64,000 nucleotides of DNA, from the NCBI GenBank assembly GCA_038046765.1, contig JBBSVN010000002.1:1-64000 (forward strand), given 5' to 3'. Position numbers and translations under genes: made by a program. Shown here one piece after another: positions 49,923-64,000 of the stretch. Origin of the DNA: Candidatus Micrarchaeota archaeon. Its GTDB lineage: Archaea; Micrarchaeota; Micrarchaeia; Anstonellales; Bilamarchaeaceae. How positions within the stretch are numbered: the first letter of the stretch is position 1; each line of letters begins with the position of its first letter. The notes beneath the pieces are model-generated. The model saw only the letters and a program-made list of their open reading frames with translations, did no database searches and was not told the origin of the DNA.

Positions 49923-50171
49923 TTATTCATAAACATTTTTTCTGTGCCCTATTTTTAAGATTATTATCTGCTGATTCTGTTCATTTATATCTAGAATTAC
50001 TCTATAATCCCCTGCTCGTAACTTATACGCATTTGAACCTGTTAGTCTTATACAATAGTGGTGCGGTTGTAGTTGTATCCGCTCTAATACTGCAACGATT
50101 CTGTCTTGAATTTCCTTTTCAAGATTCAAAAATGCTTTTTTTGCAGTATCACTTATAATGATGTCGTACAT
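49923..50171 (-). CDS. RelE/ParE family toxin
   Basis: LRAGDYRVI, IGHRKNVYE. Confidence 0.92.
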   Translation of the reverse strand: MYDIIISDTAKKAFLNLEKEIQDRIVAVLERIQLQPHHYCIRLTGSNAYKLRAGDYRVILDINEQNQQIIILKIGHRKNVYE

Positions 50172-50386
50172 TATTTCATCTCTTTCTTCAAATCTGCAAG
50201 TCCTACAAATTTTCCTTTTCTAACCTCATTTCGTGATGCTTCTACTTCTTTTATAAAATTAGGGTTGAGCGCAAGTCTGTCTTCTATCATATCTTCTATA
50301 ACTTGCTCATAAGTTTCGTTGTAAGATAACTTCATTAGTTCAAGTTTCTTTCTTAGTTCTTCGGAAACCTTAATTGTAGTATACAT
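50171..50386 (-). CDS. Cognate antitoxin (RHH-like)
   Basis: TTIKVSEELRKKL..ETYEQVI; overlaps the toxin start. Confidence 0.85.
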   Translation of the reverse strand: MYTTIKVSEELRKKLELMKLSYNETYEQVIEDMIEDRLALNPNFIKEVEASRNEVRKGKFVGLADLKKEMK

Positions 50387-51692: not shown

Positions 51693-52073
51693 TTATGCGC
51701 AATTGTTCAAAGTTAGTCCATTTACATTCCCGCTATTACTTACAATAGATGCAAGTATTGTCGGTATTATTATGTAAATTAATACACCAATAATTGCACC
51801 AGTAAACATTGCTGTAGCCCACACTGTTGCTCTTGCTCTTGTTTCAGCACCAAGTAATTGACCTACTGCATATATTACTGCTGACATAACTACAAGTAAA
51901 ACAACTGCTATTCCCAACATTGTTTTTGCAGACTTACATAACTCAAATAATGCTATGTTTACCCCCGTTAGTCCGCCTGCATAAGTAATTGTTGCAAAAC
52001 CCATTAAAAATAATAGAATTGTGAAAAGTTTACTAAATTTATTTAACTTTACTAATATACCCGACACGTTCAT
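51693..52073 (-). CDS. TrbC/VirB2-like pilin
   Basis: Signal peptide, then two hydrophobic helices separated by GAETRARA; GAGGTGA SD; own terminator. Confidence 0.65.
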   Translation of the reverse strand: MNVSGILVKLNKFSKLFTILLFLMGFATITYAGGLTGVNIALFELCKSAKTMLGIAVVLLVVMSAVIYAVGQLLGAETRARATVWATAMFTGAIIGVLIYIIIPTILASIVSNSGNVNGLTLNNCA

Positions 52074-55232: not shown

Positions 55233-55454
55233 ATGACGAAAACAGAAAAACAATTTAATGTAATTATTGAAGAAGGAGAAGATGGGTATTTGCTATCTGA
55301 AGTGCTAGAGTTGCCTGGATGTCATACACAGGCTAAAACTTTAGATGAATTGATGCAAAGGACAAAAGAAGCCATAGAATTGTGTTTAGAAGCAAATGAA
55401 GAATTAGTAAAAGAACGATTTGTAGGATTGCAAAAAATAATGGTTTCTGTATGA
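55233..55454 (+). CDS. hicB: HicB family antitoxin
   Basis: ELPGCHTQAKTLDEL..EAIELCL. Confidence 0.9.
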   Translation: MTKTEKQFNVIIEEGEDGYLLSEVLELPGCHTQAKTLDELMQRTKEAIELCLEANEELVKERFVGLQKIMVSV

Positions 55455-55678
55455 GTAAATTACCTCTTTTGTCAGCTAGAGAAATAATTCGAATTCTTGA
55501 AAAATTAGGTTTTGAATTTATGCGTCAAAAAGGAAGTCACATGTTTTTTAGGTACGCAGATGGTAGAACTACAACTATCCCAAACCATCCTGGTGAAGAT
55601 ATAGATCGTGGGCTTCTTAATAAAATAATTCGAAAGGATCTTGGAATTTCAAGAGAAGAATTTATGGAATTATTATAA
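55451..55678 (+). CDS. hicA: HicA family toxin
   Basis: LGF..RQKGSH, TTIPNH..EDI.RGLL. Confidence 0.92.
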   Translation: MSKLPLLSAREIIRILEKLGFEFMRQKGSHMFFRYADGRTTTIPNHPGEDIDRGLLNKIIRKDLGISREEFMELL

Positions 55679-59014: not shown

Positions 59015-59791
59015 ATGGAAATTATTTTTCTTGGTACTGGTGGGGGGCGGGTAAACCTTTTGAAGCAAATTCGATTAACTGGGGGTTTTAGGATAAATTC
59101 AAAATCTGCAAATATCCATGTTGACCCGGGTCCTGGTGCTCTAATTAATAGCATAAACGCAAACCAAAATCTTTTTGATTTAGATGTAGTTATTGTGAGT
59201 CATACTCATATTGATCATTCAAATGACGCAGGTCTTCTAATTGAAGCAATGAGCGATCATGCATTAAAAAATGGAGGAATACTTATTGCAAGTGATAACA
59301 GCTTAGGTACAACTACATCTGATCACGTAATATCTAAATTTCATCAAAAACTCGTTCTTGAAAATTATACTGCTAAATGGGGCGACAAAAAAACATTTAA
59401 AACAAAAAAGACAAATCGTTCTTTTGAAATTGAAATATTAAAAACTGATCATGGCGATTCTAGTGGATTTGGGTTTAAACTTTTTGTCGATGGAAAAATA
59501 ATTGGCTATACAAGCGATACTGGGCTCTTTGAAAATATGGGGAGTTTATACCAAGGTTGCGATGTTCTAGTTCTAAACTGTTTAAAATTAAAACCGGACA
59601 ATTTCAATAAGCATTTGTCAGTTGATGATTCAATCCAGTTGTTAAAAGTTGTAAAACCAAAACTCGCAATACTAAATCATATTGGAACGCACATAATCGA
59701 AGCTGGTCCGGAACTTATTGCAAAACGGATTGAAAAGGAAACTGGGGTTAAAACTGTTGCTGCGAAAGATTTTCAGATATTTCGCTTATAA
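59015..59791 (+). CDS. Metallo-beta-lactamase fold hydrolase
   Basis: LGTGGGR, VDPGPG, SHTHIDH, YTSDT. Confidence 0.92.
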   Translation: MEIIFLGTGGGRVNLLKQIRLTGGFRINSKSANIHVDPGPGALINSINANQNLFDLDVVIVSHTHIDHSNDAGLLIEAMSDHALKNGGILIASDNSLGTTTSDHVISKFHQKLVLENYTAKWGDKKTFKTKKTNRSFEIEILKTDHGDSSGFGFKLFVDGKIIGYTSDTGLFENMGSLYQGCDVLVLNCLKLKPDNFNKHLSVDDSIQLLKVVKPKLAILNHIGTHIIEAGPELIAKRIEKETGVKTVAAKDFQIFRL

Positions 59792-60299
59792 AAATCTAGC
59801 CTTAAGATATGGAGAAAAATAGTTCCCGTATTTTTTCTGCAAATCCTTCCTCATCCAGTCATCTGCTTTTATTATTTTTCTGCAGTTTTCGCTCTTACAA
59901 TTACATTTTAAGTCTTCCATGCTTGATTCACAAAATGCGTAGTCTAAAGTCAACTCTTCTCCCTTTTGTATATCTCTTATTGCAACTAAACGAAGCGATC
60001 CATTAAATCCGCAATTAGGCTCGCAAGAGTGATTGAAAGATGCTGTTTGTTTTATTTCTTCTTTTGAAGTTGGGACAATAAAAAATTCATCATCGTACTG
60101 TATTCCAATGTGGTACATTTTTTTCCAATAATCTTTTATTTGTGATTTATGTACTATACTTCCTCCAAAAACGCAAATAGTTTCATTTTTTTTTTATATT
60201 ATCTGTTGCAATCGCACCAAGACCTTGGATTTTTGAATCGATCGACCTTACTTTCGCGCTTATCCATCTATGAGGTATCGAAGAATGTAAATCTTGCAT
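59786..60299 (-). CDS. SET-domain lysine methyltransferase with post-SET; frameshift in an A10 run
   Basis: SKIQGLGAIAT..., NHSCEPN, GEELTLDY, CNCKSENCR; frame breaks at T10 60186-60195. Confidence 0.88.
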
Positions 60300-60520
60300 T
60301 ATTTTCTTACTCAACTTAAATTTTTAATGTTTCCTCATAATTTGCTATCATTTTTCCTAAATTCATGAATTGCCGGCAACACCAAGAGAGAATCATTTGT
60401 GTGTTGCCCTACTTGTTTGCAATTTGAAGAGCCGCTTTTTTCTTTGTAATAAGTTGATACTTAGCCTAGACTTAGCTTTTTAAATAACATACTCGTTAAT
60501 CTAAGAAAGGAGGATCAGTT

Positions 60521-61330
60521 ATGAATCAACAAAAAATGTTTATGTACGGAACAGTCGCAACTGCGTTACTAGGATTTATTATAATTATCACTAGTGGCGG
60601 AGCTGGTTTACTTGGTTTAATAGGTGGTCTTTTTGCCGCGATAGGTGCTGTTTTTGCAGTTCTTGTAATAAAATATGGATACTTAATCATCCCGTTAATA
60701 ACTCAAAGAACAAAAACAGTTATCTTAACTGATACGGGATATGAAATACCCTCTTCTCAAGATGTTATTGTAAAGAATGTTAACGGTGTTTACTACGCAT
60801 CCAGTTTCCTGGTAGTTAAAGTATATGAATCAACTACTGAAAAAACTACTGAAGAAACTCTGGCCTACAACGAATTTTTTGAAAGAGCAATTTCAAATAT
60901 GAAATACGTTACAAAAATTTCATTACTTTTATATGTTGAAGAAATTGGAGAGCGAAGAAAACTTTTGGAAGCAAAACGCGCTGAAGCACAATTAAGGTTA
61001 GCAAGAGAACGGGAAAAAGCAGAAGCTGATGTTCTTAAAGTAGATAAGTTGGAGCGTGAAGTAGCTTTTAGAAATGCACAACTTAACGAAATAATTAAAG
61101 GAGTAAAACCGATGGGTTTAGTTGCCTATGCAATGACAACTGCTGCTGAATTAAGTAAAGATGCTGCGATTGCAACAGTCAAATCCAGGGTCAATGAACT
61201 TAAATCGGTTCTTGCGAACTCGCTTAATGTTGAAGTAGATATCGTAACTGGAGATCAGATGATGAAATGCTTCGAATGGGAAACATTCCTTCCAACAAGT
61301 CCACAGGAGCTTGAAGAAGCAGTCAGTTAA
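60521..61330 (+). CDS. Membrane protein with coiled coil, upstream partner of the VirB4-like ATPase
   Basis: Two N-terminal TM helices, coiled coil RRKLLEAKRAEAQLRL; GGAGG SD. Confidence 0.8.
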   Translation: MNQQKMFMYGTVATALLGFIIIITSGGAGLLGLIGGLFAAIGAVFAVLVIKYGYLIIPLITQRTKTVILTDTGYEIPSSQDVIVKNVNGVYYASSFLVVKVYESTTEKTTEETLAYNEFFERAISNMKYVTKISLLLYVEEIGERRKLLEAKRAEAQLRLAREREKAEADVLKVDKLEREVAFRNAQLNEIIKGVKPMGLVAYAMTTAAELSKDAAIATVKSRVNELKSVLANSLNVEVDIVTGDQMMKCFEWETFLPTSPQELEEAVS

Positions 61331-61364
61331 TGTTAAATGGTTCAAAATTCAAAACGGGATAAAA

Positions 61365-62942
61365 ATGGTATTACCTCTAAAACTAAGTCGAATTTCAAAT
61401 AAAGAATTAGCTAAACGTAATCCGTTTATCTACCCGCCAGAGCCGCCCTTAGATGTAACTATGGGTGACCCCACCGATTCTATTTTTATCGGAAGAACTC
61501 AAATATTTAAGGCACCTTTTTACTGGTCATTTGAGAATGTCGCAAATCCGCACATTGCAGTTGTAGGAATCAGTGGATCTGGTAAAAGTTATTTTATTAA
61601 AACATTTCTTATTCGTGCGTCTTATGTGTGGAATTCAAATGCATTAATCATTGACTGGGCAGGAGAATACCGTGATTGGGTAAAAGAAACAGGAGGAAAA
61701 ATCATTTCACTTGGTAAAGGATCATACTTAAATTTACTCGATTTAGGTGGCATGGCGCCATACGACCGGATAAAACAAATTGTGCGTACATTAGAACTCT
61801 TAACTGATATAAAAAATTATCCCGAACAGCGAAGACTGACCGAGCAAGCAATCGAAAAAGCATATTTGGAAAATAAATTTAAACTAGATGTTGCTGAACA
61901 AAAAGATGAATTAGGAAAAACCAGGGCACCACCAACACTAAAAGATGTTGTAAAAATTCTGGAAGAACAAGCAAAACTTGGTTCATACGAATTTCCTGCG
62001 GAATTAGAAAATGCAATCTATCGATTAAAGCAATTTACAAAAAGCGGTCAGGATTATTTTGCACAGCAAAGTACTGTTAAACTTGATGACATTATAGATA
62101 GTGGTATGGTTGATCTTGATGTTTCGGGTTTACCAAGCGAGGAATTTCGTGCTTTAGCTGCTCTTACGATTCTACAATTTGTAAAAGAAAAAATGCGTGC
62201 AACAGGTTGGGCAAAAACTAAAGGTCTAAGACTTATTGTTGTTTTAGACGAAGCGTGGAAAATTGCAAAAGAAGATAACAGCGATGCAGTTATGATTGTC
62301 CGTGAAGGTAGAAAATACAACTTTGGGATAATTGTAGCAAGCCAGAACCCAACAGATATAAGTGAAGCAATATTTAGCAACGTTGGAACAACCTTTATTC
62401 TTAAGGTAAAATTTGAACGGTTTTTAGATTACTTGCAAGGTAGTCTTAACTTTAGTAACTACATGAGAAATGAAATCCAAAGGTTTGGGGTAGGTCAGGC
62501 TGCAGTAAACATGGCATTAACAACTCCGACTCCATACCCATCGACATTCATAGTTGAAAAAATCAAAGGCGAAGAACCAGTTAAGGAATATTTCCTTGAC
62601 CTATCGAGCGTTCTTACGCAAAAGCAACTGAGGGAGGTTTCTGTGTCACGAAGTATATCCTTTATAAAAGAAGATTTGAGAAAGAAACTAAGGCAGTATG
62701 GTGTTAGTGAGGAAAAAGTTGAAGAAACTACAAAACTTTTAGAAAAAAGCAACCGACACATAGATGTAGTTACATTTGTTATCCTTCTTGAGCGATATGG
62801 TCTAGCAAGAAGAAACATAACCGAGTTCCTTAAAGAAGCAGGTATTGACGATATTACGATTATTAATATATTTGGTAAGGTTGACTTAAAGAAAACCGAA
62901 TTTGGAGGTAAGGAAATAACTCAGGTTGTACTTGAAGATTAA
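61365..62942 (+). CDS. VirB4/HerA/FtsK-superfamily P-loop ATPase
   Basis: NPHIAVVGISGSGKS (Walker A), IID..GEY, VVLDEAW (Walker B), REGRKY, ASQNPTDI. Confidence 0.9.
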   Translation: MVLPLKLSRISNKELAKRNPFIYPPEPPLDVTMGDPTDSIFIGRTQIFKAPFYWSFENVANPHIAVVGISGSGKSYFIKTFLIRASYVWNSNALIIDWAGEYRDWVKETGGKIISLGKGSYLNLLDLGGMAPYDRIKQIVRTLELLTDIKNYPEQRRLTEQAIEKAYLENKFKLDVAEQKDELGKTRAPPTLKDVVKILEEQAKLGSYEFPAELENAIYRLKQFTKSGQDYFAQQSTVKLDDIIDSGMVDLDVSGLPSEEFRALAALTILQFVKEKMRATGWAKTKGLRLIVVLDEAWKIAKEDNSDAVMIVREGRKYNFGIIVASQNPTDISEAIFSNVGTTFILKVKFERFLDYLQGSLNFSNYMRNEIQRFGVGQAAVNMALTTPTPYPSTFIVEKIKGEEPVKEYFLDLSSVLTQKQLREVSVSRSISFIKEDLRKKLRQYGVSEEKVEETTKLLEKSNRHIDVVTFVILLERYGLARRNITEFLKEAGIDDITIINIFGKVDLKKTEFGGKEITQVVLED

Positions 62943-62956
62943 TCTTTTAAATAAAT

Positions 62957-63421
62957 ATGTCAGGTGAGTTTATTAAAAAATGCATAATCTGTCAAAAAGA
63001 TATTGAAAACGAAAATGCGGTAAAGGTAAAAGATGATAAGATAATTACTACTATTCGTGCGATAAAAACAAAATTAAATGCTGTAAAAGGAAATGAACTT
63101 TATGTTTGTGAAAAAGATTTAGAAGTTCACGCAAAAAAAAGAAAAACTTATGAAAAAGATACTTTTATTGCTATGGTAATTGCTGGTCTAGCCTTTTTAT
63201 TTTTACTACTTCTTCCAATTATTCAAGGTAGAATCGACATTCAGTTCATAATCGCATCACTAATCATTTGCCTTGCGATTGTTTTTATGGCAGTTATACT
63301 AAAATATGTTCCAGCTACGCAAGAAACAAAGCTAAAATCTTCGGTACAAGAATCTGTGTCTGTAGATCAATATCGAGTTTCAGATACAAAAAAGAAAAAA
63401 ACTCAACTAAATAAAAAATAA
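62957..63421 (+). CDS. Membrane protein with N-terminal CxxC...C motif
   Basis: CIICQK, YVC..D..H, two TM helices. Confidence 0.75.
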   Translation: MSGEFIKKCIICQKDIENENAVKVKDDKIITTIRAIKTKLNAVKGNELYVCEKDLEVHAKKRKTYEKDTFIAMVIAGLAFLFLLLLPIIQGRIDIQFIIASLIICLAIVFMAVILKYVPATQETKLKSSVQESVSVDQYRVSDTKKKKTQLNKK

Positions 63422-63455
63422 GTAAAATAATTCAAAATCATGAAATGTGGTATAT

Positions 63456-64000
63456 ATGGCAGTTACAAACCCCGCATCAAAACCAACACCGCAGTTAAAT
63501 AAATCTTCTCCGGGCGTTGATGGATTTAAATTGAAAGCTAGTCTAAAGGGAAAGATGGAAGATATTTCCTCTGCCTTACGTACCGTCTCATTTTTGGAAG
63601 TCGGTGCTGAAAGAGAGGCAGTTAATGCTGCATACATTGAAAGCAGGGACATTAACAAAATGCCATACCTGTTTAGTATATTGAAAATAAAAAATGACGA
63701 ACTGGAGATAGTATATACGATTCCATCGGAAATTTCACCTAAAAAAAGAAGACTTGACATGATTCGGTATTTGCTTAATATTCTTAGTCTTATTGAACCA
63801 TATTATAAAGTAGAAACTACCTCAATCTATCAATTGATTGAAAACGCTGTAAAAGAAATAAGTGAAATAGTTTCACTTGACTACAGTAAACTTTATACTT
63901 CGTATGATACTTTGAAAAAAGAACTTGATGATACAAAGAGGAAACTTGGTAGGTTTACTCAAGAAAATCAGAGCCTTACTAACAGAAATTTTGAACTGAA
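63456..64000 (+). CDS. Coiled-coil hypothetical protein (partial, runs off window end)
   Basis: MAVTNPASKPTPQLNKSSPGVDGFKLKASL... open to the end of the window. Confidence 0.75.
   Translation, partial: MAVTNPASKPTPQLNKSSPGVDGFKLKASLKGKMEDISSALRTVSFLEVGAEREAVNAAYIESRDINKMPYLFSILKIKNDELEIVYTIPSEISPKKRRLDMIRYLLNILSLIEPYYKVETTSIYQLIENAVKEISEIVSLDYSKLYTSYDTLKKELDDTKRKLGRFTQENQSLTNRNFEL

Follow-up and report, generated by a model that had tools for sequence, protein, structure and literature searches.

Several machines built from type IV secretion system (T4SS) parts bear on the locus described here: the Ced system of Sulfolobales (CedA, CedA1, CedA2, CedB, CedD and CedE) with the Ced-like operons of other Thermoproteota, the Ted system of Thermoproteales (TedA, TedB and TedC), and T4SSs of mating-pair formation class FATA (MPF_FATA) together with those of Patescibacteria (TrsD plus VirB4). 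Papers are cited by identifier for what their accessible parts state. Deletions of CedA and CedB affect import only (PMC11868833), the Ted pilin has a cleavable signal peptide (PMC9905601), a feature suggested also by the signal-peptide-like start of the pilin considered below, and in Patescibacteria the T4SS lacks a relaxase, and Southlakia cannot do without it for epibiotic growth (PMC12102498). Here we analyse positions 1–64,000 of contig C2 (JBBSVN010000002.1) of a Candidatus Micrarchaeota archaeon (the window, 64,000 nucleotides; source genome 1.5 Mb, 89.7% complete), which ends within an operon encoding a VirB4/CedB-like ATPase. The system to which this operon belongs is a real, conserved and apparently undescribed variant of the T4SS/Ced family. 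We give about even credence to the reading that the operon encodes one half, motor plus accessory proteins, of a chromosomal membrane machine of Ced/T4SS descent that likely takes up nucleic acid from a host or kin cell in contact with it. To our knowledge, it has not been settled how DPANN symbionts physically draw material from their hosts, and no genes have been assigned to the structures observed at contact sites.

The ATPase and its detached N-terminal domain

The operon and the pilin discussed with it comprise the following genes.

Gene A: 60521–61330, + strand; 269 residues, two transmembrane segments, detached N-terminal domain of a CedB/VirB4 motor (TrsD/TraC-like)
Gene B: 61365–62942, + strand; 525 residues, ATG start, VirB4/CedB-like P-loop ATPase without its own N-terminal domain
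Gene C: 62957–63421, + strand; 154 residues, degenerate cysteine motif, two transmembrane segments
Gene D: 63447 (GTG start) or 63456 (ATG start) to 64211 of contig C2, + strand; 251–254 residues, ending beyond the window
Gene E: 64237–66816 of contig C2, wholly beyond the window; 859 residues, two transmembrane segments, fifth gene of the operon
Pilin, VirB2-type: 51693–52073, − strand; signal-peptide-like N-terminus, hydrophobic hairpin, Cys46 and Cys125

Genes A, B, C and D are intact open reading frames (ORFs) packed closely on the + strand with intergenic gaps of 34, 14 and 25–34 bases, the arrangement described in an earlier, sequence-only reading of the window. B has Walker A at residues 68–75, Walker B at 292–298, REGRK at 313–317 and SQ at 326–327, and no transmembrane segment. 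Its extra C-terminal domain, which the earlier reading put at ~110 residues beside the same VirB4/HerA motifs, measures ~107 residues (about 419–525) and stands alone as gene b in 48 of 77 loci; this and the other locus counts come from the best 80 of 490 confirmed candidate loci of B. A TTG start at 61311 would lengthen B and make it overlap A; relatives align from residue 1–7 of the 61365 frame, which makes 61365 the likely start. Several genomes carry LAGLIDADG inteins inside B (L060:8488–11628; P0277–P0285, P0287).

By similarity score, the nearest relatives of B outside Micrarchaeota lie in Thermoproteota operons of Ced type. Its Pfam matches are DUF87, AAA_10 and P-loop_TraG, and its NCBIfam scores (VirB4_plasma 78.8 bits, CedB 77.2, HerA_Thermprot 43.4) all lie below cut-off, with the VirB4 and CedB/CedD models at 70–79 bits; the curated CedB model has a cut-off of 700 bits, against 77.2 for a B whose motor is also split. 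The closest relatives by score are of Ced type, with E values of about 1e-55 compared with 1e-23 or weaker for conjugative VirB4, and those of its relatives that bear taxon labels are nearly all Micrarchaeota.

A search for longer relatives of the B core returned fused proteins of 850–880 residues with 34–35% identity. This family has members labelled Thermoproteota, scores best among NCBIfam models with CedB (along residues 41–640), and is encoded in operons running CedA1-like gene, CedA-like gene, small gene with two transmembrane segments and CedB-like gene. The profile of A, which has hydrophobic segments at residues 6–24 and 32–50 and a helical middle, matched the N-terminus of the fused proteins at 98% (hhalign; E value 3e-13, 243 columns), in an alignment spanning their first 250 residues, transmembrane segments included. 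Consistent with this, the structural neighbours of A in the Atlas are N-terminal parts of DUF87/VirB4 ATPases and PF26593, at template-modelling scores of 0.44–0.55. Plasmid TrsD-like genes gave weak hidden Markov model matches to A (E values 2e-4 and 0.02), profile comparison with single plasmid proteins was weak (17% and 4%), tblastn of A in plasmids found no match and a PDB profile search with A yielded nothing useful. The name 'SPFH/Band 7' on the top Atlas cluster of A was set aside for want of Pfam support.

A adjoins B in 65 of the 70 loci with room upstream, and four of the other five still have A elsewhere in the locus; in 37 of 67 loci it is duplicated (A′ and A). By sequence comparison, A and B together amount to a single CedB/VirB4-type motor split in two genes, and the match to fused CedB-like N-termini bears out the earlier suggestion that the upstream gene may supply the VirB4 N-terminal or membrane part. 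Domain b and gene C found no match in the fused Thermoproteota ATPases. Separately, Ced-like operons outside Sulfolobales on Thermoproteota-type contigs (L180–L201) encode CedA1, CedA, the small two-segment protein and a fused CedB, and the fused CedB carries an extra tail with winged-helix and nuclease-like parts.

Databases call the orthologues of B 'HerA' and B matches DUF87, as would be expected were B a repair HerA or the locus a decayed mobile element, a reading that is now largely refuted and that we consider almost certainly wrong. This genome has a separate HerA (C10:75291) and NurA (C20:5892), with only three DUF87 ATPases found in all. The size of the HAS barrel, the N-terminal domain of HerA, is taken here from general knowledge. 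Walker A falls near residue 68 in B compared with ~162 in the genome's own HerA, and the N-terminus of B as predicted leaves no room for that barrel. In a 49-row tree (12 rows dropped, 4 skipped where the motif pattern failed), Micrarchaeota B proteins formed a clade (support 100/98) whose neighbour, at 99/92, was the Thermoproteota Ced-like clade; conjugative VirB4 (99/92) and HerA (100/100) stood apart. A 26-row quick tree likewise separated HerA from B, with support of 100. The sequence-only reading had named two outcomes that would tell against it, grouping of the ATPase with repair HerA and a clearly mobile setting with unconserved neighbours: B lies outside the HerA clade in the 49-row tree, and the genes are intact, with neighbours conserved phylum-wide amid housekeeping genes. 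The result thus corrects a widespread misannotation.

Channel paralogues, pilin and distribution

In many genomes the full operon runs pilin(s), six V genes, A′, A, B, b, C, D and E, where V denotes a family of multi-pass, CedA/VirB6-like channel paralogues. Sequence comparison places in one operon of these genomes both a VirB2-type pilin and six CedA/VirB6-like membrane proteins in fixed order. Carriers of the longer operons, in which topoisomerase VI B often follows E on the opposite strand, include the cultured Ca. Micrarchaeum A_DKE (L115) and Fermentimicrarchaeum (L108). Among 53 loci with 9.5 kb of sequence upstream, 23 had six V genes, 4 had five, one had a single gene and 25 had none, and in 30 of 62 loci V genes were linked to B on its upstream side. 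A conserved 243-residue multi-pass membrane protein sometimes stands between pilin and V array, and does so in many loci (L077:6147–6875 and similar).

The V family matched the CedA-like neighbours of the fused ATPases in profile comparison (94.5%, E value 8e-8, 265 columns). One of 57 V members matched the NCBIfam CedA model NF041796 (E value 5e-6), and in this genome the curated CedA model gave one weak match, below its cut-off; a PDB profile search with V returned 0 matches, and Pfam held no family for the seven V proteins of this genome that were scanned. The V N-terminus resembles the pilin (77%), and CedA likewise resembles CedA1 (PMC9905601). Across 25 arrays, a V gene found its best match at its own array position in 2979 of 3600 comparisons, where chance would give one in six, so that by this measure the six positions behave as separate putative orthologous groups.

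In the genome analysed here, local search found 13 V genes (C4:20308–28872, C10:32268–40296 and C4:102725–103768), unlinked to B. The sequence-only reading had pointed downstream of the operon for VirB6/CedA-like genes; such genes exist, but other genomes have them upstream and the present genome has them on different contigs. The C4 (20308–28872) and C10 (32268–40296) arrays are two separate six-gene sets and fit the position rule poorly (39 and 36 of 144). Two genes of the C4 array have an N-terminal pilin-like domain, and the array is broken by an unrelated 136-residue gene; next after the C10 array comes a cysteine-containing, probably secreted protein of 1444 residues (C10:41225–45559). 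There is also a second, smaller set, scattered here, consisting of a short pilin (C12), a single V, A2, B2 and D2.

Second set: C4:73226–75649, C4:101849–103768 and C12:34649–34906; contiguous in L071–L073 (D2 missing in L073)

Split reverse-transcriptase-like ORFs lie beside possible variable-protein genes at C4:12214–14492 and C4:70753–73197, the latter just upstream of B2; we take them to resemble diversity-generating retroelement cassettes.

Members of the pilin family stand directly before A, or head the operon, in relatives, which upholds the earlier pairing of the 51.7-kb pilin with the ATPase operon. Two of four scanned pilins of relatives, next to A, pass the cut-off of Pfam T4SS_pilin (PF18895), whereas the window's own pilin has no T4SS_pilin match at an E value of 0.1, though it is of the same family. 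The family profile matches TrwL (8s6h) at an E value of 0.025, and 22 of 27 pilins have a cysteine pair flanking the hairpin. Three parts of a T4SS core can accordingly be named: a VirB4-family ATPase with its N-terminal domain (B plus A), a VirB6/CedA-like polytopic channel (the V family) and a VirB2-like pilin (the pilin family). Beyond what the cited papers state, the roles of VirB2, VirB4 and VirB6 are general background. With motor, channel and pilin all found in a chromosomal setting, the earlier proposal of a domesticated T4SS-like apparatus has gained substance. No PF10412 match above cut-off, the sign of a VirD4/TrwB coupling protein, was found in this 89.7%-complete genome.

Across a sample of 151 genomes, drawn from Micrarchaeota, a phylum of very small archaea that depend on hosts, B was present in 134 and V in 135: 134 had both, 16 had neither and one 89%-complete genome had V only. 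B and V are therefore jointly present or missing in 150 of 151 genomes, kin among which are not independent. The 16 genomes without them fall in six family-level groups, which makes them few independent events; a lower threshold in five of the 16 recovered weak ATPase pieces only. The system is chromosomal, as the sequence-only reading supposed, and conserved across Micrarchaeota, and A, C, D and E are kept as neighbours. One genome lacking B and V (G122) has frames of 3404, 2942 and 450 residues with weak ATPase matches (C1:781266–794951); these recall the giant VirB4-bearing proteins of nanohaloarchaea and possibly represent an alternative host-contact system. G174 and G176, from a family mostly without the system, each yielded a single V match together with a more distantly related B (E value about 1e-110), perhaps a minimal or re-acquired form.

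Accessory genes and the proposed machine

C adjoins B in 74 of 77 loci. It was rightly described earlier as a cysteine-motif protein with two transmembrane segments, having a CxxC near its N-terminus, one further cysteine, and transmembrane segments at 71–89 and 97–115; the motif appears degenerate or variable, making a zinc site possible, and Pfam and NCBIfam scans placed C in no known family. D, near B in 74 of 76 loci, also belongs to no known family. In the AlphaFold model of D (predicted local distance difference test score 89.7), an alpha/beta domain is followed by a helix of 76 residues and a C-terminal winged helix, so the long helix behind its earlier description as a coiled coil stands, while a coiled coil alone does not describe the protein. 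Its N-terminal domain has a middling match only, to YwmB (Z 8.0, root-mean-square deviation 4.2, 95 residues aligned), Foldseek on D returned nothing at an E value of 0.001, and a predicted complex of B with D scored 0.00, which counts neither for nor against an interaction.

The winged helix of D has that of archaeal ESCRT-III (2xvc) as its top match both by fold (Z 8.6, root-mean-square deviation 2.2, 55 aligned) and, among winged helices, by sequence profile (E value 0.0012). This match would suit a machine tied to membrane remodelling or division, a reading we think very unlikely: the fold match ties with generic Lrp-type (Lrp/AsnC) and Z-alpha helix–turn–helix domains, the D model has no ESCRT-III core, and pilin and channel would be left unexplained. 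E, near B in 66 of 69 loci, has transmembrane segments at 67–85 and 613–631, between them a predicted ectodomain with modelled immunoglobulin (Ig)-like and GATase-like folds, and after the second a predicted folded cytoplasmic tail. E has no Pfam family, and its PDB profile search gave nothing useful. Its C-terminal tail matched that of the fused Thermoproteota ATPases at 15–28% (E values 6e-4 to 2e-3), a lead only, in a comparison from which E-x-K-like residues are missing.

In supplement 1 of PMC11329633, as far as accessible, the order of accessions and the masses of five proteins in the Microcaldus ARM-1 proteome agree with B, b, C, D and E: the accession run lists 'HerA' at 56.5 kDa, hypothetical proteins of 12.6, 15.1, 28.3 and 90.9 kDa, topoisomerase VI B and a KH protein, matching the five genes plus the neighbours seen in L115. 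All five were identified by tandem mass spectrometry in all four 'M' samples, which we take as co-culture because cytoplasmic ARM-1 proteins occur almost only there, and intensity-based absolute quantification put the ATPase at 2.3e9, topoisomerase VI B at 1.5e9 and SecY at 0.7e9. Glycosyltransferases precede the ATPase in the ARM-1 listing, which means either that A is encoded at another place in that genome or that it went unseen. For A_DKE, contigs from RNA runs covered 30, 30, 29 and 21 of the 30 bins of the region in 4 of 14 listed runs; this coverage includes neighbouring genes, DNA may be in the libraries, and we take it neither as proof of transcription nor as a ranking of genes.

Cryo-electron tomography of the ARM-1 envelope revealed a 68-nm tube and a 21-nm barrel, the tube 6.7 nm across outside with a 4.4-nm lumen and traced by the authors to the host, the barrel in the symbiont envelope (PMC11329633). 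The system might then be this tube-and-barrel junction of Microcaldus and host, a wide passage through which the symbiont feeds on host contents of several kinds (nucleotides, RNA, lipids and proteins). The structures themselves, the abundance of the inferred components in ARM-1 culture and an outer tube diameter near the 7.4–8.7 nm of conjugative pili speak for it. We nevertheless regard it as quite improbable, since the lumen is far from the 1.6–2.6 nm inside conjugative pili, the authors place the origin of the tube in the host and 16 sampled genomes have neither B nor V.

Under the import reading, A would anchor B at the membrane and B would form an ATP-driven ring beneath a six-subunit channel. 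This channel would be a mixture of the six V paralogues and would serve as the assembly site of the pilin, which a disulfide possibly closes; C and D may act as cytoplasmic adaptors, and E could form a collar in the space under the surface layer. The proposed direction follows from the resemblance to Ced and from the failure to find a coupling protein; the nucleic acid imported would probably be single-stranded DNA. Host-to-Micrarchaeota gene transfer has been reported (PMC5498576, PMC8975820).

A number of points weigh against import. Cargo and direction have no direct support in these data, CedE serves export as well (PMC11868833), and Patescibacteria retain a relaxase-free T4SS of unknown cargo (PMC12102498), so that absence of a relaxase does not imply import. 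Genes b, C, D and E are extra, without counterpart in Ced; the pilin has no match to CedA1-like pilins (hhalign 1%; none of 27 matches the CedA1 model NF041797 at an E value of 0.01) and is more VirB2-like; and B scores slightly higher against the model for VirB4 of bacterial integrative and conjugative elements than against CedB. In the 26-row tree, support for Ced as sister fell to 55 with B outside Thermoproteota plus VirB4, an approximately unbiased test did not reject B grouped with conjugative VirB4 (p 0.30), and Sulfolobales CedB and TedB sequences were in neither tree. The deep placement of B next to Ced is not robust, and because the smaller tree lost the sister position, Ced kinship rests on similarity scores and the homologies of A and V rather than on the tree. 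The ARM-1 proteins were assigned by order and mass alone, not by sequence. Finally, parts are scattered and multiplied in this genome's family and order, which suggests more than one job.

The same machine could instead serve attachment or export, B only assembling a docking pilus or secreting effectors or adhesins without nucleic-acid import; we hold this to be unlikely, though the most serious competitor. The established role of VirB4 includes pilus biogenesis (PMC12102498), the pilin is VirB2-like, E has an adhesin-like Ig ectodomain in its predicted structure, one V array here precedes the 1444-residue probably secreted protein, and a related idea has been proposed for the giant VirB4 proteins of nanohaloarchaea (PMC10266531). 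Set against these are the Ced-type identity of the closest relatives by score, the lack of a detected coupling protein and the absence of any candidate effector gene kept beside the operon.

A bolder form of the import reading, which we regard as improbable and put forward as speculation, is a host-tapping organelle encoded by ~15 genes, in which a mixed channel of six subunits is joined by a split motor, a pilin closed by a disulfide and a collar of Ig domains. It would build the 21-nm Microcaldus barrel, dock its own pilus or a host Ced pilus, and pull in host DNA or RNA. If true, it would explain both feeding and host-to-symbiont gene transfer.

Flanking housekeeping genes encode valyl-tRNA synthetase, a metallo-beta-lactamase fold protein, TFIIE-alpha (downstream of E on the opposite strand) and a glycosyltransferase, and topoisomerase VI and ribosomal proteins were also read from their sequences; the Pfam scan of the flanks covered 16 ORFs. 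The G+C content of the operon, 33–35% compared with 33.3–38.1% for the genome's contigs, is native, and no integrase, relaxase, NurA, Mre11 or Rad50 gene was seen among the ORFs between 38 and 90 kb, no genome-wide relaxase search having been made; both observations agree with the earlier reading. Two putative signals precede A, their functions proposed from the letters.

TATA-like box, putative: 60477–60486, + strand; before gene A
Shine–Dalgarno-like motif, putative: 60507–60514, + strand; before gene A

A short SET-domain ORF lies directly upstream of A on the minus strand (59786–60118; its start may be further upstream), and toxin–antitoxin pairs of ParE type and HicA/HicB bracket the pilin region at 49923–50386 and 55233–55678.

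Comparison with known systems

A literature search found no description of this system in Micrarchaeota, most subscription papers lying outside its coverage, and none appears in the accessible parts of PMC10266531, PMC12102498, PMC13705601, bioRxiv 10.1101/2021.04.28.441871 or PMC11329633. The accessible parts of PMC9905601 and PMC11868833 do not mention DPANN or Micrarchae(ota), that of PMC5498576 does not mention VirB, and T4SS and HerA terms were not found in the part of the PMC8975820 supplements searched. A specific gene set can now be given, present in most sampled genomes of the phylum including cultured A_DKE (L115) and, by order and mass in the accessible data, in the Microcaldus ARM-1 proteome.

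Like Ced, the system is chromosomal, has a VirB4-like ATPase with an N-terminal transmembrane domain (here A plus B) and has a CedA-like channel with a pilin-resembling N-terminus; no coupling protein was found here. Unlike Ced, the Micrarchaeota motor is divided between A and B, and many loci have a second A, six ordered channel paralogues replace CedA and CedE, the pilin has a signal peptide and a cysteine pair and is not CedA1-like, and the Micrarchaeota proteins miss every curated Ced cut-off. With Ted it shares a domesticated T4SS core of pilin, channel and ATPase, whereas Ted loci hold HerA, ParA and Rad50 genes that the Micrarchaeota loci lack, a comparison of gene content in which no Ted sequences were used. 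B resembles repair HerA in belonging to the same ATPase superfamily, DUF87, and differs in its separate branch and in lacking both the HAS barrel and linkage to NurA, Mre11 or Rad50.

As in MPF_FATA and Patescibacteria T4SSs, a separate TrsD-like gene, a homologue of the VirB4 N-terminus, stands beside the ATPase, and the pilins are VirB2-like as in Patescibacteria. FATA VirB4 differs in keeping its own N-terminal domain (Walker A near 230–270), which B does not, and no PrgI gene or peptidoglycan hydrolase was seen in the Micrarchaeota loci; V showed no match to the single large plasmid membrane protein with which it was compared. With the Micrarchaeota system, chromosomal T4SS derivatives in archaea would number three; it parallels that of Patescibacteria and is unusual in its split motor and six fixed channel paralogues.

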